A program made the translations under genes and the position numbers. Under the pieces are notes generated by a model that did not search any database, had not been told where the DNA came from, and saw nothing but the letters and a program-made list of their open reading frames with translations. This document shows, in pieces, positions 39,613 to 62,704 of a stretch of 64,000 nt of DNA. Each line of letters begins with the position of its first letter. Within the stretch, counting starts at the first letter, position 1. The DNA lies in NCBI GenBank assembly GCA_963710375.1, contig CAVPZX010000002.1:800001-864000 (forward strand), written 5' to 3'. The stretch is from Nitrospirota bacterium (GTDB lineage Bacteria > Nitrospirota > Thermodesulfovibrionia > Thermodesulfovibrionales > Dissulfurispiraceae).

Positions 39613-39644
39613 CAGCTGAATGCTTGAACGTTAAGGAGGGTGTC

Positions 39645-40293: not shown

Positions 40294-40341
40294 TTAGTAA
40301 TTGACAACCCAACAATCGTTTTGTTATAAAAGAAGTTCTAT

Positions 40342-40417
40342 TCCCGGGTAGCTCAGCTGGCAGAGCAGGTGGCTGTTAACCACCCTGTCGGGGGTTCGAA
40401 TCCCTCCCCGGGAGCCA
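40342..40417 (+). tRNA. tRNA-Asn (GTT)
   Basis: Acceptor TCCCGGG/CCCGGGA, anticodon arm GGTGG-CTGTTAA-CCACC, GGTTCGAATCC, encoded CCA; TTGACA (40301) and TATAAA (40325) promoter boxes. Confidence 0.97.
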
Positions 40418-40450
40418 GCCGTTACTCTCAGCAAAACCATTTGCTGTTTG

Positions 40451-40522
40451 TGTCGCGGAACCATAGTTTGAGACGAAATCTCATACTATGGTTCTTTTGC
40501 ACTCTGTCTCAAACTATGGTTC
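40451..40522 (+). repeat. Tn7-like transposon end with three 17-bp TnsB-binding-type repeats
   Basis: TGTCGCG followed by GAACCATAGTTTGAGAC (40458-40474); inverted copies at 40478-40494 (2 mismatches) and 40506-40522 (exact). Confidence 0.8.
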
Positions 40523-41054
40523 GGATTATTTTAAATAATAATCTGTATGGCCGTTATCTGGCTGTATACGCCCACCATTGTAGGCGATATCTGAAAGTGA
40601 CCTAATAATTATACGGCCCAAGCCCACTCTAAATTAGTCGCATGTTCCGATTCGCCCCGAAACATGCACAGTGAAGTTCTTCCTCGACACCAGCTGCAAT
40701 TTCCTGAACCTCTCTTTTCCCCTTTGAACTGCGCAAAATTGCGAGGACTCAGTCGGCGGGCAGTACTCCCTACAATCGTTATTTCGTAAGATAGCAGTTT
40801 TTATAAAGCTTTCAACCCGCAATTAATAAAACACTGCCCTTTTTTGTGAAGAATACCCTGTGCTGCACGTAAAAATCGAAACGAGGCTCCGCAGCCCCGG
40901 AACAGCCGATATCCGTTTCAGACGTACATCCATCGGTGTACTGTTGTATGGCGGTAATATTCACTGGAATGTGTTCACTGAAACTTGTATGAGAAAGTGG
41001 TATCTGCTAATATTTGAATCAATAACACATTAAATTTTAAAGGAGACCTTATGT

Positions 41055-41582
41055 ATGCGTGCAAATAAGAGTAGCTTGATCAAAGCGGTTTTGGCCTGTC
41101 TGCTTCTCTTATCATTTGTATCTGTTGTCCATGCCGCTGGAAGTAAGCGATTCACTCTAAAAGGTGGCGTTATTTATGACTCATCAACCGGGCTCCAATG
41201 GGCACCCGCCCCTAACGACGCAGGATATGTCATGCCGAACCAAAGGAAGGCCGCGAATAAAAGCCTGATGAGGAAAATGAATTATCATCAGGCAGATGAA
41301 TATGCCCGGAATTTAAACCTTGCCGGAGGCGGATGGCGTCTGCCGACAATAGAGGAACTAAAGAGCTTGTATGACACAACCAAACCCGGTAATGTGGATC
41401 CTGTTTTTAATATTATTAAAAATTGGGCATGGACATCAGAGTCGCGTGGTACTGGTACGATGGACGCGTGGGCCTTCTGTTTCGACGGTAGCGGATGCGG
41501 TGGCGACGGTACCGGCGGTCATGGCGTCAACATTTACCGCGCCGGCATCTTTCCAGTTCTGGCAGTGCGGTCCCGAAAGTGA
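41055..41582 (+). CDS. Secreted DUF1566 (Lcl C-terminal) domain protein
   Basis: Signal peptide; D..TGLQW, GWRLPTIEELKSL, WAWTS, VLAVR. Confidence 0.8.
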   Translation: MRANKSSLIKAVLACLLLLSFVSVVHAAGSKRFTLKGGVIYDSSTGLQWAPAPNDAGYVMPNQRKAANKSLMRKMNYHQADEYARNLNLAGGGWRLPTIEELKSLYDTTKPGNVDPVFNIIKNWAWTSESRGTGTMDAWAFCFDGSGCGGDGTGGHGVNIYRAGIFPVLAVRSRK

Positions 41583-41814
41583 TGTGGATCATTTGATCCT
41601 TTGATAAAGACCTGTTTTCACGCAAAGGCCCAAAGGGTGCAAAGAAAGGCAAGGCGAACCACATAGGCACGAATACAGAGAGAAAAACAATAAATAATTT
41701 CTCACAATGCAGCAAAAACCTGGAAAAAATTGAAACCACGGTAACGGCGATTTTTGTTTGGAGCAACCATAAAAAAGGAGAAAGGTTCTGGAAAATAGAT
41801 ACATAGGATATAAC

Positions 41815-42468
41815 GTGAATGATTTGGACATACAAATTGAGGTGACAGATTCAGATAACCCATCCCCGAAACCTCCAGTTCAACCTTCTGATGATGTCAA
41901 GGCACTCATACGAACAAAATTCCGGGATATTGCCCTTATGGCTCTACCCTTAATTGGGTTACCCAATCCCGCATTTAAGAATTATAAACTGCGGTTTGAA
42001 ATAGAGAGTACAATAAATCCTGGCAATGATCGAGGTCCTTTTACATTTGTGCCTGTTGATACAACTGTAGTAATTCTTCTCCCCGATTACAAATGTATAA
42101 ACTATAGCGAGGAGTCCTGGGATTTCAAGAATACTCTTCATCAGCTTGCTCATGAATGTGTGCACGCCTTTGGCCCGCCTCTTCGCATACCGTTGACTAT
42201 TTTAGAAGAAGGCATGGCTGCTTATTTTTCAGATTATTATGCTCAGAGTCTCTCGATTAATTTAAGACAGCATCCTTGTAGCAATCATGAAAAAGCAAAG
42301 TATGCTGTTCGGGATCTATTGGACATGAAAGCTACAGTAATTACAGAACTACGTATTAACAATCCCCAGCTGCGCATTTCACAAATAACTGAAGATATGC
42401 TGCGTAACGCTTGCCCAAGCATAACAGATTCTTTAGCTCAACTCTTGGCAAGTGAATTTAAAAAGTAA
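41815..42468 (+). CDS. Hypothetical HExxH metallopeptidase-like protein
   Basis: HQLAHECVH followed by LEEGMA.YFS. Confidence 0.6.
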   Translation: MNDLDIQIEVTDSDNPSPKPPVQPSDDVKALIRTKFRDIALMALPLIGLPNPAFKNYKLRFEIESTINPGNDRGPFTFVPVDTTVVILLPDYKCINYSEESWDFKNTLHQLAHECVHAFGPPLRIPLTILEEGMAAYFSDYYAQSLSINLRQHPCSNHEKAKYAVRDLLDMKATVITELRINNPQLRISQITEDMLRNACPSITDSLAQLLASEFKK

Positions 42469-42739
42469 AGAACAGTGTTCGATCTTATTTACATTTAAAG
42501 AGAAAGAATAGCTATATGCAACATCTGCTCATATATTATACTATTGTGTCGTAAAGCAATTAGTCCGGCCTACTTACATAAATTGCTGAAACTGGCATCA
42601 AATTTGTTCTTCACCGTGCTATGCGTAAAATCACGCAAGGACCGAGACTGAAGATTCACAGTAAAAACAAATGTATGATGCGGAACTGAGCGGCTCCCGA
42701 CGAGGAGTCTGTTCGAAATACGTCCGCTGGATTAGCGGG

Positions 42740-44176
42740 TTAGATCGGTTTCTCGATTGAGTTTTGTAGTTTTTTGATTGGGAAACCGATTGAGTAGTAA
42801 TCAATGTAATCATCACTCCCGTTGGTTATGCAAAGTAAAACCCTATGACATAATACCTTAAGTAGTTTTACTTCTTTTATTAAATCGATATAGTCCTGTT
42901 CTTTTGTCATTGAACCATGAGCAGCTCGATTTCTTTGTTTCCAAGCGAGAGATTCAATATTACTAAGCTGAAGATTCAATGCACCCAGAAATTCTTCCGT
43001 TAGTACACTCTGGGGTTTTTGATTAAGCGAAGCTATCTTGTTGTTTATTATTTTAAGAAGATCCCCGTTTATACTTTTACTTCTAACAACTTCCAATATA
43101 TCCTTTTGTAAAGATTCCCACGCTGTTTTCTCAAGCACTGAAGTTTTGAATAAAGAGCCATTTGCTGCGACAAATGCGTTTTGTATAGCTTCAAATGTTG
43201 CTCCAAAATGAACTGCTGCGATATGGATAGGAGCAGAAACAGAATGCCAATAAAGCCAGCCTACATGACCAAGATTGTAGTCATCATATTTTTTATAGAA
43301 GGCATTTACCATTCGAGAGAATTTTTCTCTGTTTAGTTCGTTCCCGAATTTCTCATACAAGGGAGACGGAGGTAGAGTAAGCAATTTGAAGGCCTTTCCA
43401 TCAATGGTATAAGCACTTATTGATTTAAAGGAAACTAATTGCCATTTACTGTTGAAAATGGAATGCCCCAGATGAATAAATGGACGGCCAAAAGCAAATG
43501 ATAAAGCCAATCTGATCTTTGACCTTATTTCCTCAGAAGGAGTTCCATTATAAATAACAAACCCTGGCATTTTTTCGTCGCTGACAGCAACCTTATTGCA
43601 AACACCAAAATATAATTCCTGGCCATCAACGCTAATGTTTACACATTTCCAAGAGAAAGAACTTGTTTTTTCAGATGACGTAAGCAGCAACGAACTTCCG
43701 TTTTTGCAAAAAATTCTATTTGATAATACTTCAACTTCTTCATCCAGTGAATCCGGCCAAATATAATAGCTGTCATCTACATTTACTAACCATTCGATTA
43801 GATATTGACCCTCAGACAGATTTGTCACTATGCACTCAAGATTTTGTATTGATGCCTTTTCATGTCGGTAACATGTACCTGTTTCATTCATAGACCTTGA
43901 GTTGGTCAACGGCTGAACGCCATATGCAATTGCCTTTATACCAGATTTATTTTCAAATTCAATTGAGTCGATGTTTGATCGAACCGTTCCTGGTGGATAG
44001 TTAACGGAACAAGTTGTCGTATCATGGTTAGACACAGTGTCAATAAAGATATTTAAATCTTCATCCCTTTTTATCGTGAATTTATTGACCGGCGAATATA
44101 GAGACCCGGCCTTTGTTAATGAAAAAAGACCTTCATTTAAAAAGCTATCAAATATCTCCCATTTCCAAACAACCAT
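42740..44176 (-). CDS. ApeA/HEPN-like protein (putative anti-phage)
   Basis: 478 aa, AT-rich; LSFAFGR, C-terminal RNRAAHG (Rx4H HEPN motif). Confidence 0.6.
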   Translation of the reverse strand: MVVWKWEIFDSFLNEGLFSLTKAGSLYSPVNKFTIKRDEDLNIFIDTVSNHDTTTCSVNYPPGTVRSNIDSIEFENKSGIKAIAYGVQPLTNSRSMNETGTCYRHEKASIQNLECIVTNLSEGQYLIEWLVNVDDSYYIWPDSLDEEVEVLSNRIFCKNGSSLLLTSSEKTSSFSWKCVNISVDGQELYFGVCNKVAVSDEKMPGFVIYNGTPSEEIRSKIRLALSFAFGRPFIHLGHSIFNSKWQLVSFKSISAYTIDGKAFKLLTLPPSPLYEKFGNELNREKFSRMVNAFYKKYDDYNLGHVGWLYWHSVSAPIHIAAVHFGATFEAIQNAFVAANGSLFKTSVLEKTAWESLQKDILEVVRSKSINGDLLKIINNKIASLNQKPQSVLTEEFLGALNLQLSNIESLAWKQRNRAAHGSMTKEQDYIDLIKEVKLLKVLCHRVLLCITNGSDDYIDYYSIGFPIKKLQNSIEKPI

Positions 44177-44529
44177 CTTATGTTTCCCTATAATCTAACG
44201 CTGCGCTGAGCGGCCCCGGAAGTGGAGTGCGTTCCCGTGCATAGTTCACCCTCTGCAGTGAGGAGACGGAACACGTAATTATATAGTTTCTGCTCATCTC
44301 CGCAAATTCTATCATAGCCACTCAGAATTTTAACAGATTTTGATAAGCCAATAGCTCCCAAGCCTAACCCCGCCGATATTATGAACATCGGCAAATAAAT
44401 ATATCTGCTCAGGCCAAAATTGGGAGTTCTGCGGTGACATCTTCAGGTGATAGAGGAACTCATTATCTCCCAATCTCGAAATCCTTCTGGACTTTTTTGC
44501 CCTATTCTCCTAAACTCTGAATATGCTGT

Positions 44530-44865
44530 TTGCAGATGACAGTATACCCTACCGCAACTATAACGGAGAACTGGAGGGTGCACTTCTTGGCGTCAGACAT
44601 TATGGCCTCATACGCAGGCATTGCGCTGGGCATGTCGATTCTTTATGTATTTATTAAATGGGTGAAGCTCCGCCATATTTATTTCACCATGCTTTACCTG
44701 GCCGGCACTGCACTTTCTTCCGTTGGCGGCCTTTTCCTTGCATGGCCGTTGACCCATCATATAATTCTCCCGATGCTCATCGCCGCCCTCTGCTGGAGCG
44801 GACTTTGCTTGCGTCTTTTTGTACAACATAAGTCGCAAACAGCCACGCTTTCGCTTCGGGGTTGA
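44530..44865 (+). CDS. Small membrane protein (possibly a fragment)
   Basis: Three hydrophobic segments; weak start. Confidence 0.3.
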   Translation: MQMTVYPTATITENWRVHFLASDIMASYAGIALGMSILYVFIKWVKLRHIYFTMLYLAGTALSSVGGLFLAWPLTHHIILPMLIAALCWSGLCLRLFVQHKSQTATLSLRG

Positions 44866-44958
44866 GCTCCAACTCGCTAACGACGCCGAATGTTATCGGC
44901 TCTTCGTATTTGTAATATCTTGCCAAGCATTCATAAACGAACTCTGTCCCGTCTGACC

Positions 44959-45429
44959 TTACAAAGGCCGCACCTTCCCAGCCGACGCCATTGACACGAG
45001 TTCGCCAGCTTCCCGAAGCAATTCCGTATCTCCAAGTTTCCGGCGCAGTAGCGCGATTTTCATAAGCACCTGCTCAGGATGAGTTGCAGACGCATATTCT
45101 GCTGTCTGCGTCAGTAGATCAATTTTGCCTCGGAGATCTTTGTCCGATTTAATACTCTCCAAGATGTAATCATTTGCCCGGCTGAGAAATCTCAGTGCCC
45201 TGAGTTTCCGCTCTTGGCGTTCCGATAATTTGCCTGGATCGCTGTGAAGCGTCCACTTGCAGCCTGTCTGTTTCTCCAGTTTCTCGATTCGCTTTTTTGC
45301 TATTTTTTCTGCTGTGTCGGATCGAAAAGTTTTGATCCTCATCAAGCGGATTGGCCTATTGCTGACCGTTCTTGGATCGACATTGTTTGCTATGCCTAAA
45401 AACTTATATGTCTTTTCTTTCCTGGTCAT
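44959..45429 (-). CDS. Hypothetical basic protein, last gene of the tns-strand run
   Basis: SD GGAGG upstream; co-oriented with tniQ. Confidence 0.55.
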   Translation of the reverse strand: MTRKEKTYKFLGIANNVDPRTVSNRPIRLMRIKTFRSDTAEKIAKKRIEKLEKQTGCKWTLHSDPGKLSERQERKLRALRFLSRANDYILESIKSDKDLRGKIDLLTQTAEYASATHPEQVLMKIALLRRKLGDTELLREAGELVSMASAGKVRPL

Positions 45430-45458
45430 TTATTTCCACCCTCCATTGTTCATCACCG

Positions 45459-45701
45459 TTAGAGTTCCTCCTTCGCTACCTTATAGGCCTTTTTAATCAT
45501 GGTCCGTGTTATCATTTCATTAGGCTCAATGCCCTGCACATCAAATATCTCATCACCTACAACCTGTATCTTTGTGATATCCTCGCCTATCCTTTTACAA
45601 CCGGCTTTGTGCAAAGCATTCAGGAACTTCTTTTTCGTCGGTTCATCCAACTTATTGTAAAGCCACTCAAAATACCGGAAGTCCTCTTTTTTGATGTACA
45701 T
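45459..45701 (-). CDS. Hypothetical 80-aa protein
   Basis: SD AAGGGGG upstream; operon-like spacing. Confidence 0.55.
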   Translation of the reverse strand: MYIKKEDFRYFEWLYNKLDEPTKKKFLNALHKAGCKRIGEDITKIQVVGDEIFDVQGIEPNEMITRTMIKKAYKVAKEEL

Positions 45702-45734
45702 AATTTCCCCCTTGTTTGTGGTTCCGTAGGACAG

Positions 45735-46295
45735 TTATAAAGATGCCCCATCTCTGATAGCGGCAAGGATAACATCAACATCTTTAGCCCCCTCATCAGT
45801 CTTAAGCATCTCCAGCGGGCTCTTCCCCTGAAAGGAAAAGTGGGGAGCCAAAAGCCACTTGCGGGCATTCTCCGCACCGCCCAGAACCTCGACAGCAAGA
45901 GCGTATGTCTCCGTCAAGCGGTATGGTCTTATGGCAAAACATTCATCACACAGCGTCCTGAGCCATTCATGAAATTTACCCTCGTTGAGCGTCCTTCTCT
46001 GTCCGGGCTTTCCGCAATCCTCACATGTTACAGACGCTCTTTCGGCAGCGGTGGCGATTAGTTCAGCAATAGCGTTATTTTCGCCAGCCACATAAACCAT
46101 CAAGTCGCCAAACTTTTCCTTGACCTGCTCTACTTTGAATCTGGTAAGCGCGGAACTCTTTACAACTTCATCAATCTTTACAAATAAATCCTCAAGGATA
46201 GGCAGCCAGCCGTCACCGCACGAAAAGCCGATTGGCCTGAGAAAATCATACTTATTCTGTAGATTATGCCTGCGTTTTTCTTGTATTTCACCCAT
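45735..46295 (-). CDS. Phage-type Zn-finger protein (GW...QVKEKFG...CxxCG) fused to an Xre/MbcA/ParS C-terminal (DUF2384)-like domain
   Basis: CGDGW, QVKEKFGDL, CEDCGKPG, TLCDEC; C-terminal AVEVLGGAENARKWLLAP...GKSPLEML.TDEG...V..IL.AI..G. Confidence 0.65.
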   Translation of the reverse strand: MGEIQEKRRHNLQNKYDFLRPIGFSCGDGWLPILEDLFVKIDEVVKSSALTRFKVEQVKEKFGDLMVYVAGENNAIAELIATAAERASVTCEDCGKPGQRRTLNEGKFHEWLRTLCDECFAIRPYRLTETYALAVEVLGGAENARKWLLAPHFSFQGKSPLEMLKTDEGAKDVDVILAAIRDGASL

Positions 46296-46316
46296 TCCGT
46301 TCTCCTTTGGTTAATC

Positions 46317-47712
46317 TTATTTCTGGTTATCAATCCCTACTAACCTTGACCTCTTAATTACTTCCCTGCAGATTCTACTGCACGCGATCCGCTCATCTTC
46401 TTTATTACCAACTATCCCTATGCCTTTGATATCGAAAGCAACCAGTCTTTGTGTTGGCCTTATCCCCTGCTGCATCAGCATCACCGCACTCTGATGATAT
46501 AAGTCGCACTTATCCGCAAATCTCCGCATTTTCCCAGAGTGTCTATGTGCCTGGAAGCGCTGGTTCATTCTCTTGGCGATATCCCCGAACCTATTGAAAA
46601 GAGTACGACGGTTAACCCCGAGTTTCTCTGCTGCCGTGGCTACGCTGATCGGCGGGTTTTCATTAGACAGCATTTCCAGTTGACGCTTAATCAATTCTCT
46701 GTCGAGTTTCTGAGTCTTCCTTGTGCGGGTTGATATTTGGGCTACGGTATGCGTGGCAATGATCTCTGTCCCCTCAAATGTGGTGTTCGTACCCAACATG
46801 ACATCAGCTATGGAAGATCGACATGCGAACGACATTTCAACCATCTGTGGGAAACTCGGGATGAATTTACCATTCATCCATCCATGTAACGTATTTTTCT
46901 TAATCCCCAACAGTTTTCCCAAAAGTGCCGCATTACCTCCGGTAAAATGCTGCGCGGCACTTTTAAGGAACTCAGAAATTCCTACTATGCCCCTATGACT
47001 TTTAGGCTTTAGTCTTTCTATATCACCTAACATAACGACGATAAGCTGCGCTCTTTTTACTTCATCCTCTGAGGCGCTTTCTATCAATTCTTCATAATTT
47101 TCTGTCAAGGAGTATCCGCACGAGCCACAAAACCCCGACAGGTGTTTAACATGCCGTGTAGACAGAGGCGATGACCCGTTACACCTGCATTGGCTTACCA
47201 ACTTAATCCCGTGTTTTGGGCATGCTTCGATAGCAGCTATCTCCCATAAAAGCTGTCCGTAGGCTCGCCCTTCTTGAGCCGCCTCAGAAAGACATATGGG
47301 GCACCATTTCTTTGTACTACTCATAAGCCGCTGCACGTTCATATATGGCCTCAAAGGAACAAGCGTTAAATCAATGAGACCTTGCTGCCCTGTAAGTTCA
47401 CTCAGGATATTCGCCCACGTTTCAGGAACAGAAGCTGATACCATTAAATAGCGGGAGTTTCCAGATCGTGAAAGCATCGTCGCTTTGGCGTGCATTACCG
47501 TCTTTTATCCTTGGGATTATTAGCTCCCTTGCCAAAGTCTTCGGAGAAACATGGTGGAGATGGGCGAGCCCCAGGTAGTAGCTGCTAAGACTTTCCCTGT
47601 ATGGTGTACCTAAACCCATTGGCCTTAGCGATGCCAACAGCGACCTTGGAGGGATCCGGGCATCCGGATCAACTCCCACCAACGGATAATCGTCCACACA
47701 TTCCACGTTCAT
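46317..47712 (-). CDS. tniQ: TniQ/TnsD target selector with C-terminal HTH domains, split by one extra base at about 47432
   Basis: GTPYRESLSSY N-terminus, WCPICL, LLW...CPKH...C.C...CGSCG zinc motifs; corrected junction FNGISSVPETWANILSELTG; about 464 aa; ATG overlaps the tnsC stop. Confidence 0.88.
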
Positions 47713-48749
47713 CAGGCCGCCTTCTTATCTGTAGTTGGTTTGAAATTAAACTTCCCGGTTCCGTAAACAGCCTTTGCTATATCCACCTCGCCCTTCAATG
47801 TCTCTTCAAGGATGGCCACAATCTGTCCTTCAGTGAGAAGAGCCTTGGAAAGACAGGCATCGGTCCATTTGCCCCCATTTCTCAGAGCGAATGTCAGTGC
47901 CCTTTGAAGGGTTTCTTTCAAAGTTCCCACGCATCCGATGCAGGAATCCATCAACTCGTTGGACATTTCTGTCAGGTCTGGTACTCCACTTAGGGGCAAG
48001 TATTTCTGCAATTTATCGACGCTTTTCTTGAAAACCTTTTCATCCTCGGCGTTTCCCCGGCAATACCTCTGGAAGTGGACAATAGCGGTCCGTCGTGCAA
48101 CCTGACCGCTTAAGCACATCAGCTGATAAAGATCGTAGGAACCGATCAGCGCCAGAGTTAGTGTAACTCCATCAAGTAGAGTTAAAGACTTTAAGGCATC
48201 CATATGTGCGGCTAACACAGCGCCTTTAGCGTTCCTGATCAAGTGAACCGCTTCGTCGATAATTAGCAGGATTGTGTGTCGATATCTCAACGCGTCTTCA
48301 ACAGCCATTCTAAGTCCAGCCACTGTGCTCCCTGTCGTAACATGACTAACCGACATACGGCCATCCTGTAGCCTGAATTCCTGTTTCTTGTCTATAAGCG
48401 GTTCAATAAGGGCGGTCCCGATTTTGATATAAAAAATACGCCATGAGAATTTATTCTCACCGGAAGACGGTGCGGTGATCATGACTACTGGAATAAAACT
48501 CAGATCTTTCGCCATTTGCGCCTGATGCAATTTAACTATACGCTCCATAAGCGATACGCTCAACGTTGACTTGCCCGCTCCAGTCGGGCCGACCAGAAGC
48601 GCAATATCTGTCCCGGACCCCGGCAAGACCATTGTCTCAAGGTCATCTAGAATAGTGCCTACCCTTGGATGTTTCACCCGCACCTGATGGAAGTAGGCAA
48701 GCTTTTCGTCGTCCGAGAGCAACATTGCCTGTTCGGGCGTCATAGTCAT
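47712..48749 (-). CDS. tnsC: TnsC/TniB AAA+ transposition regulator
   Basis: VKHPR, GPTGAGKS Walker A, LIIDEA Walker B, LIGSYDL, QVARR, GCVGTLK. Confidence 0.9.
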   Translation of the reverse strand: MTMTPEQAMLLSDDEKLAYFHQVRVKHPRVGTILDDLETMVLPGSGTDIALLVGPTGAGKSTLSVSLMERIVKLHQAQMAKDLSFIPVVMITAPSSGENKFSWRIFYIKIGTALIEPLIDKKQEFRLQDGRMSVSHVTTGSTVAGLRMAVEDALRYRHTILLIIDEAVHLIRNAKGAVLAAHMDALKSLTLLDGVTLTLALIGSYDLYQLMCLSGQVARRTAIVHFQRYCRGNAEDEKVFKKSVDKLQKYLPLSGVPDLTEMSNELMDSCIGCVGTLKETLQRALTFALRNGGKWTDACLSKALLTEGQIVAILEETLKGEVDIAKAVYGTGKFNFKPTTDKKAA

Positions 48750-48759
48750 TGGATTGATC

Positions 48760-51519
48760 TCAGAATAGTTCGTATTCTTCCTCCTCAATAGTAGCCATGG
48801 ATTCATTGATCGATGGCGATAAAGTATCTATCGGTAAAACCGAAGGCGGAATCATGGGGGCACTTGTCGAATCAATCTGAGTCTGAGGAGATGTCATTCC
48901 CAGTCTCTCGTATACAAACCGTGCCTCACTCTGCTGTTCCTTCAGACGGGGGTCGAAATTCCTTGCATCCAGAACCTTCATCCATTCTGCTATCCGTTCA
49001 GGAGACAAGTCTTTTTTCTTAATATTATTTTCTTTCGCCAATTCTTCAAAGGCATAGCGCAGTTCTATAACGGTATATTGGCGAAGCCGCCACTTCAATT
49101 TCGACTCGCATTGATGCCATTGACCATTGACCAGCGCATATATATATCGGACATCCCAGGGATCGATGCGGATATCGATGGGCTTTTTATGCAGGTTGAC
49201 GCCCCTGAAGGCATTGGTCCAATACCAAATATGGTTGATCTTGACGCCGCGCTGACCATCGACTATGCGTGTTCCACCAGCTTCAGGAGCCGGGCATGTT
49301 TCAATCAGGAACCTGCGGTCGTATCTGACAATACGATGGAGGCGCATGCCGGTCTCGGCCATTCGTGATACGAAATGCTTCACAGGTTCTTCGCCATGCG
49401 CCGAATGATTTTCAGTTCCATAGAGATTATCGAAATAATAATCAAGAGCGCCATGCAGTGCCGGCAGCGTCCATTCAACAAAGTTTTTCGGATTCACGGA
49501 TTTAGTGACCGTGCGAACATACTTCATGAGTTGGGTATTTCCGCTCAGATTATGGATAAGCTGCGATTGAGTCGTCCCGAATAGACGCTCCATTACAGAG
49601 CCGTGGCGCGGCTGGCCTGCCGGACGATACCTGATGCTGCACCCATAAAGTCTGCAAACACGTTTGAACTCACGAGACTTGAATTCCTTGCCATTATCGA
49701 CGACGAGCATATCCGGCATGCGGCCATGTCTACGGACAATATCGCGCAGAACCATCATGCAGGACCTATAACTCGGCGGCTCAAAGGACAGATAAAAGCC
49801 AACCACTCTGCGAGATTCGGCGTCAATTGCTAAAGAAAGCCATGCATGCCACGTTGACTTCAATACATTGGGCGAGCAGAGCAGTATGTCCAGAGGTGTA
49901 TGATCGATATGCACATACTGAAATGGCCTGACACCATGTATGGGCTCGTTGAGCTTCAGATACCAGACGATGGGTTGTGTCTGGTAAAAGACTCGTTTGC
50001 CTCTGCGCTTGCGAACAGACGTAAGTTTATCAACCTCTTTGTTGAATGTTTTTGCCGAACAAGGCTCAAGACCTGCAGTCTGGCATGCATCCACTAACTT
50101 TTTGTACGCCATGCCTTTGTTAATATTGGTGGCATTATTGAAGTCTTCTCTAACAATTAGAGCTATCAGATCGATTAGTTCCTTCGGGATTTTCCGCTCC
50201 CGGTTTCCGCTTTTTATAAGTTGGGGAACAAGTGCCAGATGCTGGTCAATGACACTGTCACCCGCGTCTCTCACTGCTTTCTTGTACCTGTGCAACGTGC
50301 TTCTCGACACTGTTACCAGCTCCGGCGCGAAATTTGAAAATTCGAGCTGTCGCGCCCTTGCGAGCGCTTTATCCATATATTCCGGCGATACGCAAGCTAT
50401 TGATTCATCATCACTCGAATCAGGATGCACAGACGATCTGACGTTAAGCTTTCCGGCGGCATACTGTTTTTCCAATACTTCCAGCGAAATCTCAGTGGTA
50501 CCGTCATCTGCCGAGAGCATCACGGAATTCTGACCGACAAGAGCAATCCTGTAGGTTTTGCCATCATAATCGACTTCAGTCCCAACTTCAAACGATACGT
50601 CAAGGCGGCATTCCTCATTAATAACTCCGGAATGTTCAATCCGCTGATAAAAGGCAAGCATGGTTTGATCGCGATAAACACGCGCCCTATACGTTTCGGC
50701 GATATCATCATTCATAAGGTCGAAAGCTATGTGCCCGTCGGCAATTGCTTTGTAAATATCGTCAGCCGTAACTACAAAACCGCCAGCACCAGTAATTGGG
50801 TCTTCTATTGCATCACCAGGAATCCCGTAGTTACATTCAGCCGTTTGTAATAGGTCCATAATGGTAAGCACGGCCTTTTCGGTGAGAATGCTCTGTAGAA
50901 TATTAATTTTCTGCTGTTCTACAGGCGGGCAGTCCTGAGAGAAGTAGTCCGACAGGAATTCAAGGTTCCTAACAAACTGATGTGGATGCTCATTCGCTGA
51001 CCGGAGGCGGTAGGTTATTCCCATCTCGGCAAGATGTTCCTCTGCCAAAGGGAAATGCCATCCGTCATCTCCCTTAATGTATCTGCCAGGATAATCCTTA
51101 GCGAGCTTTTCGAGCCGTTTTTCCTGCCGCCATTCCTCTATGAGTATCTGGTCAGCCATAATAATAAGGAAATCCGGAAAATGTTGTACCCGTGACGATT
51201 GCTTCCTCCCGTCAGCAGTTATAAGGTCAAGTTCGCAGGGTTGAGGGTAGTACTCAATTACCAAAGGATTATGCTCGTATTGAATCGCTGCCGGGAATTC
51301 GCCAGTTCTGCTTTCCGTACCAACAGCTCGGCCCATTTTCCGGCTTGAGTACCAAGTAATCACATTGCCGGAATTCGATTGGATATCCCTGACTGGCGCT
51401 TCTCTCCTAGCCTTCTCCACTAATCGACGCCCGGCCAATGGAGTACCCAGTCGATCAAATAAAGCATTCAATTCTATGGAGTTCATTATCATTCTCTTTC
51501 CCTCAAGCTTCGGTGGCAT
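48760..51519 (-). CDS. Fused TnsA endonuclease-TnsB DDE transposase
   Basis: N-terminal TnsA (YSSRKMG...ES..E...EYYPQP...PDFL...EEWR); C-terminal DDE (HIDHT, VDNGKEF, ERLFGT) and Mu-transposase C-terminal (IRIDPWD). Confidence 0.9.
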   Translation of the reverse strand: MPPKLEGKRMIMNSIELNALFDRLGTPLAGRRLVEKARREAPVRDIQSNSGNVITWYSSRKMGRAVGTESRTGEFPAAIQYEHNPLVIEYYPQPCELDLITADGRKQSSRVQHFPDFLIIMADQILIEEWRQEKRLEKLAKDYPGRYIKGDDGWHFPLAEEHLAEMGITYRLRSANEHPHQFVRNLEFLSDYFSQDCPPVEQQKINILQSILTEKAVLTIMDLLQTAECNYGIPGDAIEDPITGAGGFVVTADDIYKAIADGHIAFDLMNDDIAETYRARVYRDQTMLAFYQRIEHSGVINEECRLDVSFEVGTEVDYDGKTYRIALVGQNSVMLSADDGTTEISLEVLEKQYAAGKLNVRSSVHPDSSDDESIACVSPEYMDKALARARQLEFSNFAPELVTVSRSTLHRYKKAVRDAGDSVIDQHLALVPQLIKSGNRERKIPKELIDLIALIVREDFNNATNINKGMAYKKLVDACQTAGLEPCSAKTFNKEVDKLTSVRKRRGKRVFYQTQPIVWYLKLNEPIHGVRPFQYVHIDHTPLDILLCSPNVLKSTWHAWLSLAIDAESRRVVGFYLSFEPPSYRSCMMVLRDIVRRHGRMPDMLVVDNGKEFKSREFKRVCRLYGCSIRYRPAGQPRHGSVMERLFGTTQSQLIHNLSGNTQLMKYVRTVTKSVNPKNFVEWTLPALHGALDYYFDNLYGTENHSAHGEEPVKHFVSRMAETGMRLHRIVRYDRRFLIETCPAPEAGGTRIVDGQRGVKINHIWYWTNAFRGVNLHKKPIDIRIDPWDVRYIYALVNGQWHQCESKLKWRLRQYTVIELRYAFEELAKENNIKKKDLSPERIAEWMKVLDARNFDPRLKEQQSEARFVYERLGMTSPQTQIDSTSAPMIPPSVLPIDTLSPSINESMATIEEEEYELF

Positions 51520-51527
51520 GTTGTTTA

Positions 51528-51650
51528 GTTAGGTTTATCTAACTGTACTTACAAAGTTAAAAACCTTATTTAACAGAATCATATCATCGTTAGAAATATC
51601 TAACACAATTATTTACTTGACTGTCAAGAGTAAAGTAAGATATTATTTAC
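51528..51650. promoter_or_regulatory. Divergent promoter/operator region with 16-bp palindromes
   Basis: GTTAGGTTTATCTAAC (51528-51543), GTTAGAAATATCTAAC (51589-51604), weaker GTAAGATATTATTTAC (51635-51650); back-to-back TTGACT (+, 51617) and TTGACA (-, 51627). Confidence 0.65.
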
Positions 51651-51652
51651 AT

Positions 51653-52276
51653 ATGACAGTCGGTGCCTATATGAAGAATAAGAGGATGCATCTCGGGATG
51701 TCCTTGCGAGAGGCGGCCAAATCGGCAGGTATATCACATGTGCATGTTAAAGATATAGAGGCTGATAAAATAAAGCCGAGCTTTGAAAAGGTTGTGAATC
51801 TTCTCCGGGCCTATAGTGCCGACATTCAGGAGTTCTTAGAACAAATAGGGTATTTACCTCAAAATGTTGAGTCAGCGTCTATTGGAAAATTGAATTCTGT
51901 ACCGATTATCTCGTTGGTGACTGCTGGTAGTTGGAATGAGGCCTGCGAGGTATTTGAACCGGGCGAAGCGGATGAATGGGTATCTTCAGATTATAAGGGA
52001 CAAAACATTTTTGCAGTAAGAGTCAAAGGCGATTCCATGGAGCCAGAGTTTACCGAGGGGGACATTATTATTTTGGACCCTCATATGAAGCCCAATCCTG
52101 GTGATTATGTGATTGTAAGAAACGATGAAGGTGAAGCAACGCTCAAGCAGTTTAAACAGTATGGGCAAACCAAAGTGTTGCATCCTCTGAATCCAAAGTA
52201 TGACGATATCGAATTAAAGCATGGCCATCAGTATGTGATTGTTGGGAGGGTTGTGGAGAAGAAAAAGAAGTATTGA
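51653..52276 (+). CDS. LexA/CI-type repressor (XRE HTH + S24 peptidase)
   Basis: HTH MSLREAAKSAGISH, Ala-Gly cleavage site (VTAG), catalytic Ser GDSMEP and Lys ATLKQ. Confidence 0.9.
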   Translation: MTVGAYMKNKRMHLGMSLREAAKSAGISHVHVKDIEADKIKPSFEKVVNLLRAYSADIQEFLEQIGYLPQNVESASIGKLNSVPIISLVTAGSWNEACEVFEPGEADEWVSSDYKGQNIFAVRVKGDSMEPEFTEGDIIILDPHMKPNPGDYVIVRNDEGEATLKQFKQYGQTKVLHPLNPKYDDIELKHGHQYVIVGRVVEKKKKY

Positions 52277-52375
52277 ATTAGGAGGGTAATATTTCATATA
52301 AGAATCGAATAAATTATGACACGAATAAATTATACACTTGACAAACTATACCGATAAATTTATAGGATTACAATT

Positions 52376-53359
52376 ATGGCAGTCAATAGAGACAAAACAG
52401 ATTTGTGGAAGGCCGATATCGCCCGTTCAGTTGATATGTATAACAACTGGTTTGTGAACTTCGCGCCCGAAGCTTACCGAAACACCCGAATTGAAACCAC
52501 CAAAGACGTAGAGCAAACCCTTAGGACAACGGAAAATCTAACCAACATTACAACAACGATCCTTAAAGCAAATCCGTCTATATTGCCAACGTTACGTATG
52601 TCCACTTGTCCCCCTTTGGCAGTCGACAGACTTATTGGGTTGGCATGTGTTTCAAAAAATCTTGTTCAAGTTATGGAAGAAGGAAAACTGCCACCACGTA
52701 TGTTTACGCGTGAATTGGACCAGCAACTTCAACAGATTAGCGAGATAATTGCAAAAATGGCTGACCCCGATATTTTTGTTTGGTTAGGTCGAAAACAGAA
52801 GCCTTCTGAACAAGAGGTCTATCGCGCCGCGACAATTGTTGCAGATCGGCTTTGCGGTTCAGTGGCAAATCCCATCATTCGTAATGCTCAAGAAAAACGG
52901 CAATTAGCAACTATTGCAGATTGGCTCGATGCCCGAGACTATGAGCAAGTCCCCACTCGCGACGGGACAAAATTCGACGCCATGCGACCGGCGACTTACA
53001 CTTTCCGGCTAAATGTCCCCGTAAAACAGAAAGAGATACATAAAGAAAAACCGGGGGAAAAAACAAAAAGCATCAATATCCCTGTTGATGCAGTTGTCAT
53101 GCCTAAGAAGGCAAAGACTGGCGACTTCCCCTTGTTGATCGAAGCGAAATCGGCGGGAGATTTTACCAATGTGAACAAACGCCGCAAGGAAGAGGCAACT
53201 AAAATCGCTCAACTTCGTTATACTCACGGAGATCGCGTTTCTTTTATCCTCTTCCTCTGTGGCTACTTTGACAGCGGTTACTTGGGCTATGAAGCCGCTG
53301 AAGGCATCGATTGGGTTTGGGAACACCGTATTGATGATCTTGCTATGTTTGGGTTGTAA
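52376..53359 (+). CDS. Type II restriction endonuclease, XamI family
   Basis: W..DI..SVD.YN.WF, PPLAVDRLIGL, NPIIRNAQEKRQL, IEAKSAGDFTNVNKRRKEEA. Confidence 0.82.
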   Translation: MAVNRDKTDLWKADIARSVDMYNNWFVNFAPEAYRNTRIETTKDVEQTLRTTENLTNITTTILKANPSILPTLRMSTCPPLAVDRLIGLACVSKNLVQVMEEGKLPPRMFTRELDQQLQQISEIIAKMADPDIFVWLGRKQKPSEQEVYRAATIVADRLCGSVANPIIRNAQEKRQLATIADWLDARDYEQVPTRDGTKFDAMRPATYTFRLNVPVKQKEIHKEKPGEKTKSINIPVDAVVMPKKAKTGDFPLLIEAKSAGDFTNVNKRRKEEATKIAQLRYTHGDRVSFILFLCGYFDSGYLGYEAAEGIDWVWEHRIDDLAMFGL

Positions 53360-54889
53360 ATGAAAGCAATCGACCATCTTTCCCAAAAGGAAAAAACAAG
53401 GCTTAGACTCCAGGTTTCGCTTGACGCCGCAAAAACACAGGAAGAACGCAACCGCCTAGGACAATTTTCCACACCCACCCCTCTTGCTTTGGACATGTTG
53501 ACCTATGCAAAAAAGCTCATGCCCATTATACGGAAAGTCCATTTTCTTGACCCTGCTCTTGGAACCGGCGCTTTCTATTCCGCTTTATTGAGGACATTTC
53601 CTGCAAGTCGTATTGCCACCGCTACGGGCTACGAGGTCGATCCTTATTATGGTGATGCATCTCGTTCCCTTTGGTCCGACATGGGGATTGATCTTCGGTT
53701 GATGGATTTTACAAGCGCTATTCCACCTAAAAAAGGCTTCAATTTGGTAATTTGCAACCCGCCGTATGTTCGGCACCATCACATTTTGAATGGTGAGAAA
53801 GCGAGGATTCAGGCAGCTACCTATAAGGCTTGCGACATTCAGTTAAGTGGCTTATCTGGCCTTTACTGCCACTTTCTGGGACTGTCTCATAACTGGATGG
53901 CTGAAGGGGGACTTGCCGGATGGTTGATCCCAAGCGAGTTTATGGATGTGAACTACGGCAAGGCGGTGAAGCAATACCTTCTCGATAAGGTTAGGTTATT
54001 GCATATCCACAGATTCGATCCCCATGATGTGCAATTTAATGACGCTCTTGTGTCCTCTGCCGTTGTCTGGTTCAAGAAAGAGACGCCGCCGCAGGATTAT
54101 AAAGTTGAGTTTTCTTTTGGCGGGACACTGTCCGCGCCCAAAATATCTCGCAATATTTCCACTCAGGTATTAAGGACTGAATCAAAGTGGACGCGCTTTC
54201 CCCTTGCAAAAGCACGCACCAAGGAGAAATTACCAACGCTTTCGGACTTTTTTTCAATCCATCGCGGTATAGCCACAGGTAACAATAATTATTTTATCCT
54301 CACGGCTGAGCAGATTGCCGCCTGCAGGCTCCCTCAAGAGGTTTTCAAGCCAATCCTGCCAAGCCCAAGGTATTTACCTGAAATGGAGATTCAGTCCGAT
54401 GAAATGGGGAACCCAATCCTAGAGAAACCCTTATATCTTTTGGACTGCCGCCTTCCTGAAAAGGTGGTCAAGAAACGTTACCCGAGCTTGTGGCTCTATC
54501 TCTCGGAAGGCAAGAAACGAGGTGTTGCCAGCCGATACTTGTGCAGTCATCGTTCTCCGTGGTATTCGCAGGAAAACAGACCGGCGGCTCCTTTCGTCTG
54601 CACTTACCTTGGTCGTGGGAATGTGAAAAGCGGTCGTCCCTTCCGTTTTATCCTTAACCTGTCCAACGCAACCATAACCAACGTCTATTTGGCCCTGTAT
54701 CCCAAGGGACCCTTGGCCGAGGCCATTGCGAGTGATCCGTCTTTTGCGCGGCACGTTTGGGAAAGCCTGAACCGCATATGCCCAAAAACAATGCTGTCTG
54801 AAGGACGCGTTTATGGCGGAGGTCTCTACAAGCTTGAACCGAAAGAGCTGGCGAATGTTCCGGCAACTGATCTTGCTGATCTGCTATAA
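53360..54889 (+). CDS. N6-adenine DNA methyltransferase (gamma class), partner of the REase
   Basis: GQFSTP, FLDPALGTG, NPPYVRHH, GRVYGGGLYKLEPKEL. Confidence 0.9.
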   Translation: MKAIDHLSQKEKTRLRLQVSLDAAKTQEERNRLGQFSTPTPLALDMLTYAKKLMPIIRKVHFLDPALGTGAFYSALLRTFPASRIATATGYEVDPYYGDASRSLWSDMGIDLRLMDFTSAIPPKKGFNLVICNPPYVRHHHILNGEKARIQAATYKACDIQLSGLSGLYCHFLGLSHNWMAEGGLAGWLIPSEFMDVNYGKAVKQYLLDKVRLLHIHRFDPHDVQFNDALVSSAVVWFKKETPPQDYKVEFSFGGTLSAPKISRNISTQVLRTESKWTRFPLAKARTKEKLPTLSDFFSIHRGIATGNNNYFILTAEQIAACRLPQEVFKPILPSPRYLPEMEIQSDEMGNPILEKPLYLLDCRLPEKVVKKRYPSLWLYLSEGKKRGVASRYLCSHRSPWYSQENRPAAPFVCTYLGRGNVKSGRPFRFILNLSNATITNVYLALYPKGPLAEAIASDPSFARHVWESLNRICPKTMLSEGRVYGGGLYKLEPKELANVPATDLADLL

Positions 54890-55156
54890 TCGGCAATTCC
54901 TCCCGAGAGAGCGAAAAACATATACTAAACCGGGATAGTTATTTGTAGGGGGAACACTTGTCGAGTTCCAATAGTAATAATCTTCCCGGAAAAATAAAGA
55001 TGAAGTTACTGGAAACATGCAATTATTGAGGGTTCAAAAGCGCAATATCGCCAATGACTATATTGATAATATTAGATTAATTAATTGAATATAGCTTAAA
55101 CTGATAAGGGAATACACTTTGCGGTTCAATGAAACGAAGAGCGCAAAAGTGATTAG

Positions 55157-55945
55157 TTAGACATGCATCTTGCCCAAATCAAGTTCTTCGGCTATACGTT
55201 TCTTTTTAAGGTCAATCATACGCTTGACAAATTTATCAAAATCTTCCTGTGGATAGTTAGGATTTGGCTCAGAGAATAAACTCGTTAGGGTGGATAAAGC
55301 CCCAATGCCAAAACCCTTCTGACGGTATTGCGAAATTTCCGAAAAAAGCGCGCGCAACTGTTCAAGATGCGACTTCAGATCAATTTCTTTTTGCGTAGAA
55401 TAACCTGTCTCAACACGAGCATTTATAATTTTCTGAAGTTCATCATGATTTGCCTCTTCAGTGATTCCTTCACGACGTATATAGATTGCATTTGCTCTGA
55501 TACTCGATCCACCTTTTAAAGTCACGAACGGTAAGTGGTCAAGGCTATATCCTATAAAAAGAACCTGAAATTTCTTGCCGACAAGCTTTGGATACTCAGA
55601 TGCATCAAATGAGAAATCGACAGTATCCAGCAGGTCCATTAATGGATTAGGCAGATAATGCTTGATGCCATTGGTAATGTCTGCCTTGTCTTTCAGAACG
55701 GTCAGCCCTATTGGATCCAGTGTATTATCATCTTTTTCATCAACACCTATAACCAAACAGCCACCTCCAGAGTTTGCCATCCCAAGAATATGTTTTGAAA
55801 TGGCTGATTGTTCGGGCCATTCTGACTTAAAGTCACAAAAACGCAACTCTCCGATATTAGTCTTGATCAGTTCTCTAAAGCCTTCCCGCGTTGGATCTTC
55901 AAAGAATGTGGCAAAAGACTCGTGAAAAGATTTTGTTTTCCCCAT
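55157..55945 (-). CDS. Schlafen/AlbA_2 domain protein
   Basis: E...DFK, MANSGGG.LVIGVDE, IYIRR; start at MGKTK behind a GGAAGGGG SD. Confidence 0.8.
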   Translation of the reverse strand: MGKTKSFHESFATFFEDPTREGFRELIKTNIGELRFCDFKSEWPEQSAISKHILGMANSGGGCLVIGVDEKDDNTLDPIGLTVLKDKADITNGIKHYLPNPLMDLLDTVDFSFDASEYPKLVGKKFQVLFIGYSLDHLPFVTLKGGSSIRANAIYIRREGITEEANHDELQKIINARVETGYSTQKEIDLKSHLEQLRALFSEISQYRQKGFGIGALSTLTSLFSEPNPNYPQEDFDKFVKRMIDLKKKRIAEELDLGKMHV

Positions 55946-56047
55946 GCCTGTTTTCCCCTTCCATTGTTTTACATTATCGTTTATGTTTATTCTGTCCTGC
56001 AATACGCACAGTTTTTTGCAGAGTTAGGCATCATCCGGCGTGCCTTT

Positions 56048-59691: not shown

Positions 59692-59729
59692 GGGGTCACC
59701 TCACGAAATGTACAAAATCGTACGTTAAG
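59692..59729 (+). repeat. 38-bp Tn3-family terminal inverted repeat
   Basis: GGGGTCACCTCACGAAATGTACAAAATCGTACGTTAAG; overlaps the tnpA stop; candidate 5-bp TSD TATAA to the left. Confidence 0.88.
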
Positions 59730-62691
59730 ACTTGTCAACGGATTGTAACTGTCTGAATTTGCCTTGTTCGACTTTTTTGCTTTGTTTCCATATATAATCA
59801 CCGGTCAGGTTAATATGTTCCCAGCCCAGCGGTGACAAATGCTGCAGCAGATTTTCATCTACCCTCTGGCCTTGAGCTTTTAGCGCGGTCACTGCACGTT
59901 CCAGGTAGACAGTATTCCAGAGTATGATTGCTGCCACAACTATATTGAGTCCGCTGGCACGGTAACGCTGGTTTTCAAAACTGCGATCGCGCATTTCACC
60001 CAGGCGGTTGAAGAAAACGGCGCGAGCCAGGGCGTTCTTGGCTTCGCCCTTGTTCAGACCGATCTGCACGCGGCGGCGCAACTCGACGTTTTGCATCCAT
60101 TCGAGAGTAAACAAAGTGCGCTCAATGCGACCCAGCTCGCGCAGCGCTACTGCAAGCCCATTCTGACGGGGATAGCTTCCCAGTTTTCTCAGCATTAACG
60201 ACGCAGTCACCGTCCCCTGTTTAATCGAGGTCGCCAAGCGCAGGATATCGTCCCAATGTGCTCGAATCTGTTTTTGGTTAATGCCGCCCCCGATCAATCC
60301 CGATAACACCGGGTATGCCTTCTGTTTTCCCGGCACAAAGAGCCGCTTGTCAGCTAGGTCTCGGATGCGCGGAGCGAAGCGGAATCCTAACAGGTGCATC
60401 AAGGCGAAGACATGATCGGTAAAGCCCGCCGTATCGGTGTAATGTTCTTCGATCCGGAGGTCAGATTCATGATGCAGCAGGCCATCCAGGACGTAGGTTG
60501 CATCGCGGACCGTCGCGTTGATGACCTGACTATGAAAGGGCGCGTACTGGTCGGATATATGCGTGTAGAACAGCACGCCGGGCTCGCTGCCATATTTGGC
60601 ATTGACGTGGCCGGATGCTCCACCGCTTCCTCCAGCACGGAACCGCTGGCCGTCAGATGATGATGTTGTACCATCACCCCAATAAGCGGCAAAAGATTGT
60701 TGATATTGTGCATTGACCAAGTCAGCCAAGGCAGTCGAATAGGTTTCATCACGGATATGCCAAGCCTGTAGCCATGAAAGCTTGGCATAAGTAGTGCCGG
60801 GGCAGGATTCCGCCATCTTGGTCAGCCCCAAATTGATAGCATCCGCCAGAATTGCCGTCAACAGCAGCACCCGGTCTGTTGCGGCATCCCCGCTTTTAAG
60901 GTGGGTGAAGTGGCGAGCAAATCCTGTCCAGTTATCAACCTCCAGTAATAGCTCGGTGATTTTAAGGTGAGGAAGAAGAGCATAAGCCTGCCGCATCAGC
61001 AACTCAGCCTCTTCCGGCACAGCGTTGGTCAAAGGGGTGATCTTGAGCCCCGCTTCAGTTACACTCGCATCGGGCAACTGATCTTTCCCAGCCATGCCAT
61101 TAACAGTTTCGAACTCTTTTTCCAGCAGTGCGAGCTGCTCAGCAAGGTATGAATCACAGTCTGGGACAACCGCCAAGGGCAATTCTTCACGCTCACGTAA
61201 AGATGCGAACATTTCCCTTGGAAGAAGGTACTCCTCGAAATCCTTGAATTGGCGGGAGCCCTGTATCCAAATATCACCTGAGCGCAGGGCATTCTTCAAC
61301 TCGGTCAGGGCGCACAGCTCATAGAACCGACGGTCAATGCCAGTATCGGTAAAGACAAGACTCTCCCAGCGCTTTCGGACAAAGCCGGTCGGCGCGTCAG
61401 TGGGCACCTTGCGGGAGCTGTCGACATTCATTACTCTCAGCATATCGACAGCGTCCATTAAATCCTGTGCAGCGGGAGTAGCCTTCAGTTGCAGGGCTTG
61501 AAGAAATGCGGGGGCATAGCGCCGTATCTGCGTATATCCATCACCGATCCGATTCAAATAGTCGAAGTCCTCGGCCCGAGCAAGTTTCTGTGCTTCATTA
61601 ATGCTCCGGGTGAAATCCTCCCACGGTATGATAGCCTCGATTGCAGCAAATGGGTCTCTACCGTTCTGCTTGGCGTCCAACAGCGCTTGACCAATCCGAC
61701 AGTACATACGGACTTTTTCATTGATTACCTTTCCTGACTGCTGGAACTCCTCGGCGTGGTTGCGTTTTGCACGACTGAACAGGGCGCCGATAATACGGTC
61801 GTGCATATCCACGACCTCATCGATTAGCGTCGCACGGGTTTCAAGCGCTATTGCTGCCAGTGTGGCATGACGGCGGACAGATTCGAAATCACGCAAGTGC
61901 TGAGCTGTCATTTGTCCACCTTCCCGCGCTATTTTAAGTAAACGGTTTTGGTGTACTTGCCTTTCCAGCCCTACAGGCAGGTTAAGTTCTGCGATTGATT
62001 TCAGACGCTCTATGTGTTCAAGAAGATGTCTGGCTTTAGGAGCGCCTGATGGTTGCCTAAGCCATGCCATTACACTGGTTTTGGACTGCGGCCGTAGTTC
62101 CAATAGCGCATTGAGCTGAGCGCATTGTTTTTTGTCCAATGACCCAGCCAAAGTATTATAGATTCGTCGTGTTCCACGAACGATGGCTTCCTTGCAAAGC
62201 CGCTCGATGACATTGATGGCCGGAATGATAATCTGCTTTTTGCGAAGATCCTGCACCACAGCAGTTGCCAGTACAACGCCTTTGTCTGTCTGCGTAGCCA
62301 TATCAGCGAGCCATTGCACATGATTTCGGTAATGAGAGACAGAAAAAGGTTTAAAGCCGAATGCAGCCTGCAACTCAAGCAGGTGCTCCCGGCGCGTTTC
62401 CGCTCTTTCGGCATATTCGGGCCACCCTGCAGGGTCCGCCTTTACCTGCTGAGCCACAATCTGAAGCACAGTATTAGGCGGCGTATCATTGACCGGTAAC
62501 GCATAGCCCGGATACCGAAGGTAGCATAGCTGGACGGCAAAGCCCAATCGGTTATGATCTCCGCGATGCTGGAAGATGAGCGACAAGTCTTTTTCAGAAA
62601 ATGAATAGTGCTGGACCAGTTCATCTTCATCGCTCGGAAAAGCAAACAATGATGCGCGTTCGGCAGCTGTTAGTAAGGAGCGTCGGGACAT
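59725..62691 (-). CDS. tnpA: Tn3-family transposase
   Basis: 988 aa; [54 protein letters not shown]. Confidence 0.97.
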
Positions 62692-62704
62692 GCTTGATTC
62701 CGTG

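Follow-up and report, generated by a model that had tools for sequence, protein, structure and literature searches.

A 64,000-nucleotide stretch of the genome of a Nitrospirota bacterium of the family Dissulfurispiraceae (contig CAVPZX010000002.1, positions 800,001 to 864,000; hereafter the window) carries a Tn7-like transposition operon that stands back to back with a gene for a CI-like repressor. Coordinates are window positions unless prefixed, and G000 denotes the organism's own genome (3.19 Mb). The operon, on the minus strand, comprises tnsAB, encoding a 910-amino-acid fusion transposase with a TnsA-like N-terminus and rve and Mu-transpos_C domains (48760..51492), tnsC, encoding an AAA+ ATPase (47712..48806), and a tniQ/tnsD-like target-selector gene (46317..47712). 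The repressor gene, on the plus strand (51653..52276), encodes 207 amino acids and is separated from tnsAB by 133 bp of 25% GC counted from ATG 51519, or by 160 bp if counted from 51492, the likelier tnsAB start. The original prediction, made from the window's letters, described this gap as about 130 bp of AT-rich DNA, as found here, and proposed that it houses a prophage-style switch through which DNA damage induces transposition. We estimate the probability of this whole chain, through damage-induced expression of the transposition genes, at roughly two in three.

The repressor joins an N-terminal XRE helix-turn-helix (HTH; residues 8-61; PF01381 (HTH_3), 36.8 bits against a cut-off of 23) to a C-terminal S24 domain (residues 84-201; PF00717 (Peptidase_S24), 96.3 bits). 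A91-G92, S128 and K165 line up with the cleavage site and dyad of lambda CI; the divergent XRE-S24 repressor with intact Ala-Gly, Ser and Lys is thus as first described. Lambda CI is the closest relative in the PDB by sequence (E 2.5e-13) and also the closest fold match to an alignment-based structure model (predicted local distance difference test, pLDDT, 84.2; the single-sequence version reached only 37.8); K192 is named in the matched PDB entries. The best family match is the phage repressor family phrog_4 (E 4e-39). All four key residues are kept in every one of the 37 homologs that are about 65% identical or closer, and in 110 of the 118 homologs examined overall (120 listed minus two identical to the query). 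Intact cleavage residues, together with analogy, predict RecA*-stimulated self-cleavage of the repressor. recA is encoded in the host genome and likewise in the other three genomes that carry the repressor at ≥70% identity (G551, G414, G458). TTG 51617 was dropped as the start codon, the 207-residue length from ATG 51653 being typical of most close homologs. The protein is not a LexA equivalog (TIGR00498, 53 bits vs a cut-off of 110.95), nor does it qualify as a restriction-modification controller (C) protein: it has 207 amino acids with an S24 domain rather than being small and HTH-only, and there is no operator-like site elsewhere in the element.

The gap holds three palindromes that are predicted operators. 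O1 (GTTAG-N6-CTAAC, 51528..51543) lies in the tnsAB 5' leader, O2 (again GTTAG-N6-CTAAC, 51589..51604) lies over the predicted tnsAB -10 box and start point, and the weaker O3 (GTAAG-N6-TTTAC, 51635..51650), next to the repressor start, contains the repressor's own -10 box. Overlapping back-to-back -35 hexamers (TTGAC-T-GTCAA, 51617..51627; TTGACT on the plus strand, TTGACA on the minus strand) have 10 of 11 columns invariant among four elements; overlapping -35 boxes are a trait of phage 434 rather than of lambda. The predicted repressor -10 box (TATTAT, 51641..51646, plus strand) ends 6 nt before ATG 51653 with no Shine-Dalgarno sequence, and the repressor mRNA is predicted to be leaderless. 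A -10-like hexamer 5-8 nt before the start, again with no Shine-Dalgarno sequence, occurs at 29/40 homolog loci and at 4/4 transposon-linked ones. The predicted tnsAB -10 box (TTAGAT, 51598..51603, minus strand, 18-bp spacer) is weak in this copy and reads TAAGAT in three relatives. The predicted start points of the two promoters, 51653 and a position near 51591, lie about 62 bp apart, with the -35 palindrome common to both. Palindromes, -35 boxes and repressor -10 box all agree with the initial description.

O1 and O2 are the only exact matches to GTTAG-N6-CTAAC in the window, and just three exact copies exist genome-wide, two of them in this gap. When the gap was shuffled with dinucleotides preserved, 36 of 5000 shuffles yielded two copies of any single 5-bp-arm palindrome, and none of 5000 yielded a doubled palindrome whose arm holds at least two G/C. 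When two mismatches are allowed, the window holds 13 matches where 18.9 are expected, and thus shows no enrichment. A promoter scan was near chance (5 sites vs 3.4 ± 2.1 expected).

Among 317 genomes of the order, G000 included, 25 encode a repressor homolog at E≤1e-55. All four repressors at ≥70% identity face a Tn7-like operon, and in a midpoint-rooted tree of 40 homologs these transposon-linked proteins form one group (support 100/99). The palindromes are kept with the repressor in all four elements, at -125/-124, -64 and -18 from the repressor start, and the -35 pair lies at -36. Invariant columns make up 26 of 30 half-site positions vs 13 of 74 others, a statistic drawn from four related sequences only, so that its p-value is too optimistic. 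A matrix built from the three relatives alone, with the window sites left out of training, places the window's three sites at ranks 1, 2 and 3 in 3.19 Mb, and no further site lies above the matrix threshold anywhere in the element. The genes behind the repressor differ in all four elements; the facing Tn7-like operon is constant. From these patterns the three palindromes are likely operators of the repressor, and its binding to them is predicted. The G458 element, from the same order as the host, is built alike: it lies 28 bp after a tRNA-Leu gene, with a GTTCA duplication on both sides and a right end about 12.7 kb upstream. A search of 301 genomes of the class for the combined operator and -35 pattern returned two matches, both already found. 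The adjacent accessions MDA8172200 (TnsAB) and MDA8172201 (repressor) could nearly duplicate G414 and were left out of the counts; two Logan TnsAB/repressor pairs on contigs of equal size are suggestive only.

The CI-like repressor very probably binds the three palindromes and silences the tnsAB-tnsC-tniQ operon. Repressor dimers on the perfect sites O2 and O1, which would cover the tnsAB promoter and leader, would block that promoter, and the weaker O3, once filled, would limit the repressor's own leaderless message in negative autoregulation. DNA damage would lead to RecA-dependent self-cleavage at A91-G92 and hence to derepression of the tns operon, as we infer from the intact cleavage residues and analogy. 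No divergent cro gene is present in any of the four elements, where the gap leads straight into tnsAB or tniQ. Because Cro is missing, derepression would be a self-resetting pulse, and the locus likely acts through inducible repression without bistability. The label of a prophage-style switch therefore holds for the CI-like repressor, the palindromes and the back-to-back promoters facing tnsAB, but not for the full bistable prophage circuit. Entry of the element into a repressor-free cell would cause a burst (zygotic induction), a second output of the same design.

This design resembles that of SetR from the SXT/R391 integrative and conjugative elements, which tightly represses mobility genes, regulates itself negatively from a leaderless message and is released by RecA* (PMC4542580). 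SetR likewise consists of HTH_3 and S24 domains, with several palindromic operators between divergent promoters; leaderless mRNA, a low-affinity O3 over its own -10 box, RecA* cleavage and the guarding of mobility genes are shared with what is predicted here (PMC4542580). SetR, however, belongs to a conjugative element and works via the SetCD activator and a Cro-like protein, whereas here control would be exerted directly on a Tn7-like operon, with no Cro and no activator. The lambda/lambdoid CI-cro system shares the best sequence and fold match, the cleavage residues and the divergent promoters, and prophage homologs from the same phylum face cro and replication genes. It differs in that cro and phage genes are lacking here and the genes under control would be those for transposition. 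In prophages, a complete CI-like repressor is a predictor of induction by damage (10.64898/2026.06.25.734096).

The element itself is complete at 30,118 bp and flanked by CTGTT on both sides. Its left end (40449..40522, plus strand) carries the TGT terminus together with three TnsB-type sites, of which one is forward and two are reverse, and starts 31 bp after the tRNA-Asn gene that is its attachment target (40342..40417, plus strand); the 5-bp target duplication CTGTT (40444..40448, plus strand) is repeated directly after the right end. The right end, with four direct TnsB-type sites, is found 19 kb upstream of tnsAB at G000:C2:870566, which is beyond the window. By sequence, the element is a tRNA-targeting TnsAB-fusion Tn7-like transposon. 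Canonical Tn7 has separate tnsA and tnsB genes, tnsE, a glmS site and tnsA beside the right end; the present element differs in its fused tnsAB, tRNA site and distant right end. The switch had been thought to occupy the place of a Tn7 right end. The tns operon is internal and a right end exists 19 kb away, so the switch is no substitute for one.

TniQ is the only target selector, with no second targeting pathway. In the assembly its gene is split by one extra base near 47432 (frameshift region 47422-47495). This is likely an assembly error, because contigs from three of four public runs compared (the three coming from two studies) lack the extra base at 47432 and the fourth did not cover the position, although one of the three may be the source of the assembly; on the same grounds we rejected a broken tniQ as the sign of a dead element. 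No cas genes were found among the element ORFs (open reading frames) annotated, and no phage gene lies beside the repressor in the element. Directly downstream of the repressor, the cargo includes a XamI-family restriction endonuclease and a type II methyltransferase (52376..54889, plus strand), preceded by a promoter-like site of their own (TTGACA) with no operator. An Rfam scan of 39500-56000 matched only the tRNA.

The repressor cassette appears to be separable from its transposase. The G551 repressor, 83% identical to that of G000 and its sister in the tree (100/93), faces a tniQ-tnsAB-tnsC operon near a tRNA-Met gene (L134:324-6386) whose TnsAB is only 31% identical. A single clade of S24-linked TnsAB proteins was rejected (approximately unbiased test, p-AU 6e-59; 11 rows, taken from a 15-row tree). 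Because one of the four repressors thus drives an unrelated transposase lineage, the switch has likely moved as a module between Tn7-like lineages.

Repressor homologs at 42-59% identity keep the operator / -35 / operator / ATG layout, and no tns gene was found at the 14 genome and 5 metagenome loci extended around them. Pfam scans of selected ORFs at the 14 genome loci confirmed a divergent cro-like HTH gene at 6, phage replication protein O at 4, Mor at 2 and terminase at 1; RusA is also among the genes faced by more distant homologs. The prophage homologs have a divergent HTH gene of 64-85 amino acids where the transposons have tnsAB or tniQ, and palindrome sequences shift, by eye, with the repressor's recognition helix. 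Viral contigs gave no close repressor with a single-sequence query; an alignment query kept 80 repressor-like loci, mostly at 32-52% identity, with no TnsAB and one chance motif match within an unrelated gene. A prophage was the likely source of the cassette (repressor plus about 130 bp), a direction drawn from the wider spread of the prophage form (on a midpoint-rooted tree). The transposition operon would then have taken the position of cro and the lytic genes, and the cassette would later have been exchanged between Tn7-like lineages. Separately, the same repressor family, with similar palindromes, faces an IS91-like (Y2) transposase at six metagenome loci (L018, L019, L020, L025, L026 and L036; confirmed by Pfam in the three scanned).

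Several results weigh against damage-inducible control of transposition as a general feature of such elements, or in this copy. The promoter scan calls no promoter on the tnsAB side, and the tnsAB -10 box here matches only 3 of 6 positions and is without the A conserved in three relatives. Of the eight genomes of the order that have a TnsAB homolog, four carry this repressor and four do not: G288 and G382 have a divergent HTH protein without S24 before the TnsAB operon, and no regulator is evident at the TnsAB loci of G396 and G328. Two of the five closest TnsAB loci with upstream DNA are likewise without S24, and the switch is carried by just four elements, which belong to a single order. Moreover, Tn7-type transposases are gated by target recognition (PMC11406308), so extra transcript need not raise transposition. 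In a Shewanella CRISPR-associated transposon (CAST), tnsB was not induced by mitomycin C, which is said to agree with Tn7; that element is not reported to carry such a repressor (PMC12452197).

Since the remaining TnsAB loci show either a different regulator or no evident one, the switch belongs to a subgroup as an exchangeable module and is not universal to related transposons. The pairing of repressor and tns operon, whose conservation among homologous elements had been proposed earlier as a check, thus holds with all three palindromes in three other genomes and fails in half of the TnsAB genomes of the order. G382 has a tniQ-first operon beside tRNA-Met with its non-S24 regulator. Elsewhere in the phylum sample, G024 and G246 have HTH proteins without S24 at the TnsAB locus. 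Among four plasmid relatives, one has a divergent DUF6471 gene and one CopG/HTH genes, and none is annotated with S24. In the distant TnsAB elements of G053 (L095:9632-10508) and G097 (L096:3095-4003), a divergent XRE gene precedes one for an IrrE/ImmA-like M78 peptidase; the pair is possibly a second damage-responsive switch at the same position.

The main rival explanation, which we consider unlikely, is that the repressor silences the tns operon but that zygotic induction upon entry into a new cell is what matters; the S24 domain would serve dimerisation, and damage would barely raise transposition. Close relatives use HTH proteins without S24 for the same job, and the Xre regulators of type I-F3 CASTs act by zygotic induction (10.1101/2020.07.02.184150). 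With one tRNA-targeting TniQ and no second pathway, there would also be few targets for induction inside an occupied host. However, conservation of the cleavage site and dyad in all 37 close homologs goes beyond the needs of dimerisation, and the XRE and IrrE/ImmA-like pairs in two distant relatives suggest repeated selection for a cleavable repressor. Somewhat less probable is a lesser rival in which the switch mainly governs the repressor transcript and the type II restriction-modification pair behind it, tnsAB being little affected owing to its weak promoter. The degenerate tnsAB -10 box fits this idea, as do restriction or methylase genes on the same strand after the repressor in 3 of 4 elements and the failure of a scan of 51400-52450 to find a terminator. 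Against it, the two strongest palindromes are on the tns side, O1 keeps its distance of 124-125 bp from the repressor start in every element, the downstream cargo is different in each, and in the gap ahead of the endonuclease there is a separate TTGACA promoter-like site but no operator.

Two further explanations fare worse. That repressor and palindromes are a prophage remnant, carried passively beside tnsAB, gains some credit from the nearest non-transposon homologs, which are prophage CI genes with a similar promoter layout. It is nevertheless very unlikely: no other phage genes accompany the cassette, repressors 70-83% identical retain all three sites, evenly spaced from element to element despite divergence of the intervening DNA, and in two different operon layouts it is the first gene that the cassette faces. 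Least likely of all is a reading of the palindromes as end sites bound by TnsB or as LexA boxes of the host, and not as this repressor's operators, an idea prompted by their position upstream of tnsAB and by a host gene for a LexA-type protein. Both roles were rejected, since the real TGT/ACA ends, with repeated TnsB-type sites of another sequence and the 5-bp duplication, lie elsewhere, the box of the host LexA-type gene is GAAC-N4-GTTC, a motif absent from the whole element, and the palindromes change, as judged by eye, with the recognition helix across homologs. In the host LexA-type gene (G000:C4:56500-57300, L002) this box sits between the -35 and -10 boxes, and a dinB-like gene comes after the LexA-type gene; the box was not found in roughly 490 bp upstream of the host recA.

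Damage-inducible control by a CI-like repressor, the reading we favour, has partial parallels among Tn7-like elements. The branch of PmcCAST and McCAST (PMC9881144) shares fused TnsAB, TnsC, a TnsD-like TniQ, left-end sites in both orientations, a 5-bp duplication and a left end about 29-30 bp after a tRNA (31 bp here). It differs from the present element, which has a single TniQ and lacks cas genes among the ORFs annotated; the term 'repress' is absent from the main text of PMC9881144. The TnsAB described here is about 33% identical to cyanobacterial plasmid TnsAB proteins, and the 15-row tree held one cyanobacterial protein and neither PmcCAST nor McCAST. In type V-K CASTs, where regulators were acquired several times, CvkR is an element-encoded leaderless repressor acting directly on tnsB (PMC9938897). 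Unlike the present protein, CvkR is of the MerR type and has no protease domain, and its inducing signal is unknown; 'SOS' and 'DNA damage' do not occur in the text of PMC9938897. The Xre proteins RtaC and RtbC of type I-F3 CASTs show that Tn7-like elements have co-opted XRE repressors, with zygotic induction (10.1101/2020.07.02.184150, PMC11406308). These are, however, relatives of C proteins of 68-100 amino acids without S24 that control tniQ-cas and guide RNAs and are not known to control tnsAB. Host regulators act on a Vibrio CAST (PMC12150760). The main texts of PMC8649781 (no 'LexA', 'S24', 'SOS' or 'repressor') and PMC10293859 (no 'repressor', 'LexA' or 'XRE') lack the relevant terms.

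No RecA-cleavable repressor on a Tn7-like operon was found in the literature searched, most subscription papers and supplements lying outside its scope. Both parts are of known kinds, and their combination appears to be unreported. Target selection is thought to be the main control on movement of the Tn7 family; no damage input is known for the element-encoded regulators described so far (Xre, CvkR), and one CAST tested was not SOS-inducible. If the favoured reading is true, DNA damage and Tn7-type transposition would be connected through transcription for the first time in the literature searched; the switch would explain when islands of restriction and defence genes move and reveal a prophage control cassette reused by transposons. 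A broader proposal, which we find evenly balanced between right and wrong, is that in Tn7-like elements of this branch a swappable regulatory slot before the transposition operon has been filled more than once with damage-sensing repressors. One of these would be a RecA-cleavable CI cassette of prophage origin, mobile between transposase lineages and also in charge of IS91-like transposases; the other would be an independent XRE and IrrE/ImmA-like pair. Transposition of defence-gene islands would then be wired to DNA damage, unlike in any described Tn7-family element.

Other observations concern the element's history and surroundings. Contigs in runs X1 and X3, from two studies, depart from the assembly exactly at the right end's last base (G000:C2:870566, L152:7567); the alternative flank does not start with CTGTT and is absent from the assembled genome. 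Because the junction is precise to the terminal base, this transposase may have inserted a second time or caused a rearrangement next to the element. Immediately beyond the right end lies another left-end-like sequence of this family (G000:C2:870570-870645), for which we could find no partner end; it looks as if the present element landed at this tRNA site ahead of an older one. Nested within the cargo are a transposase and a resolvase of the Tn3 family (59725-63262). Directly after tniQ lies an Xre/MbcA/ParS antitoxin-like gene (45735-46295), and similar genes follow the operon in G414 and G396. A second Tn7-like operon in the genome (G000:C2:1010120-1015941), with apparently separate tnsA and tnsB, tnsC and tniQ, is without this repressor. 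A clpB-like gene (36965-39612) is apparently split into frames of 704 and 170 amino acids, possibly by another assembly indel. Just before the tRNA-Asn gene, an element of about 190 bp with 34-nt inverted ends (40102-40294) has very high depth in metagenome contigs and is a multi-copy repeat or miniature inverted-repeat transposable element.

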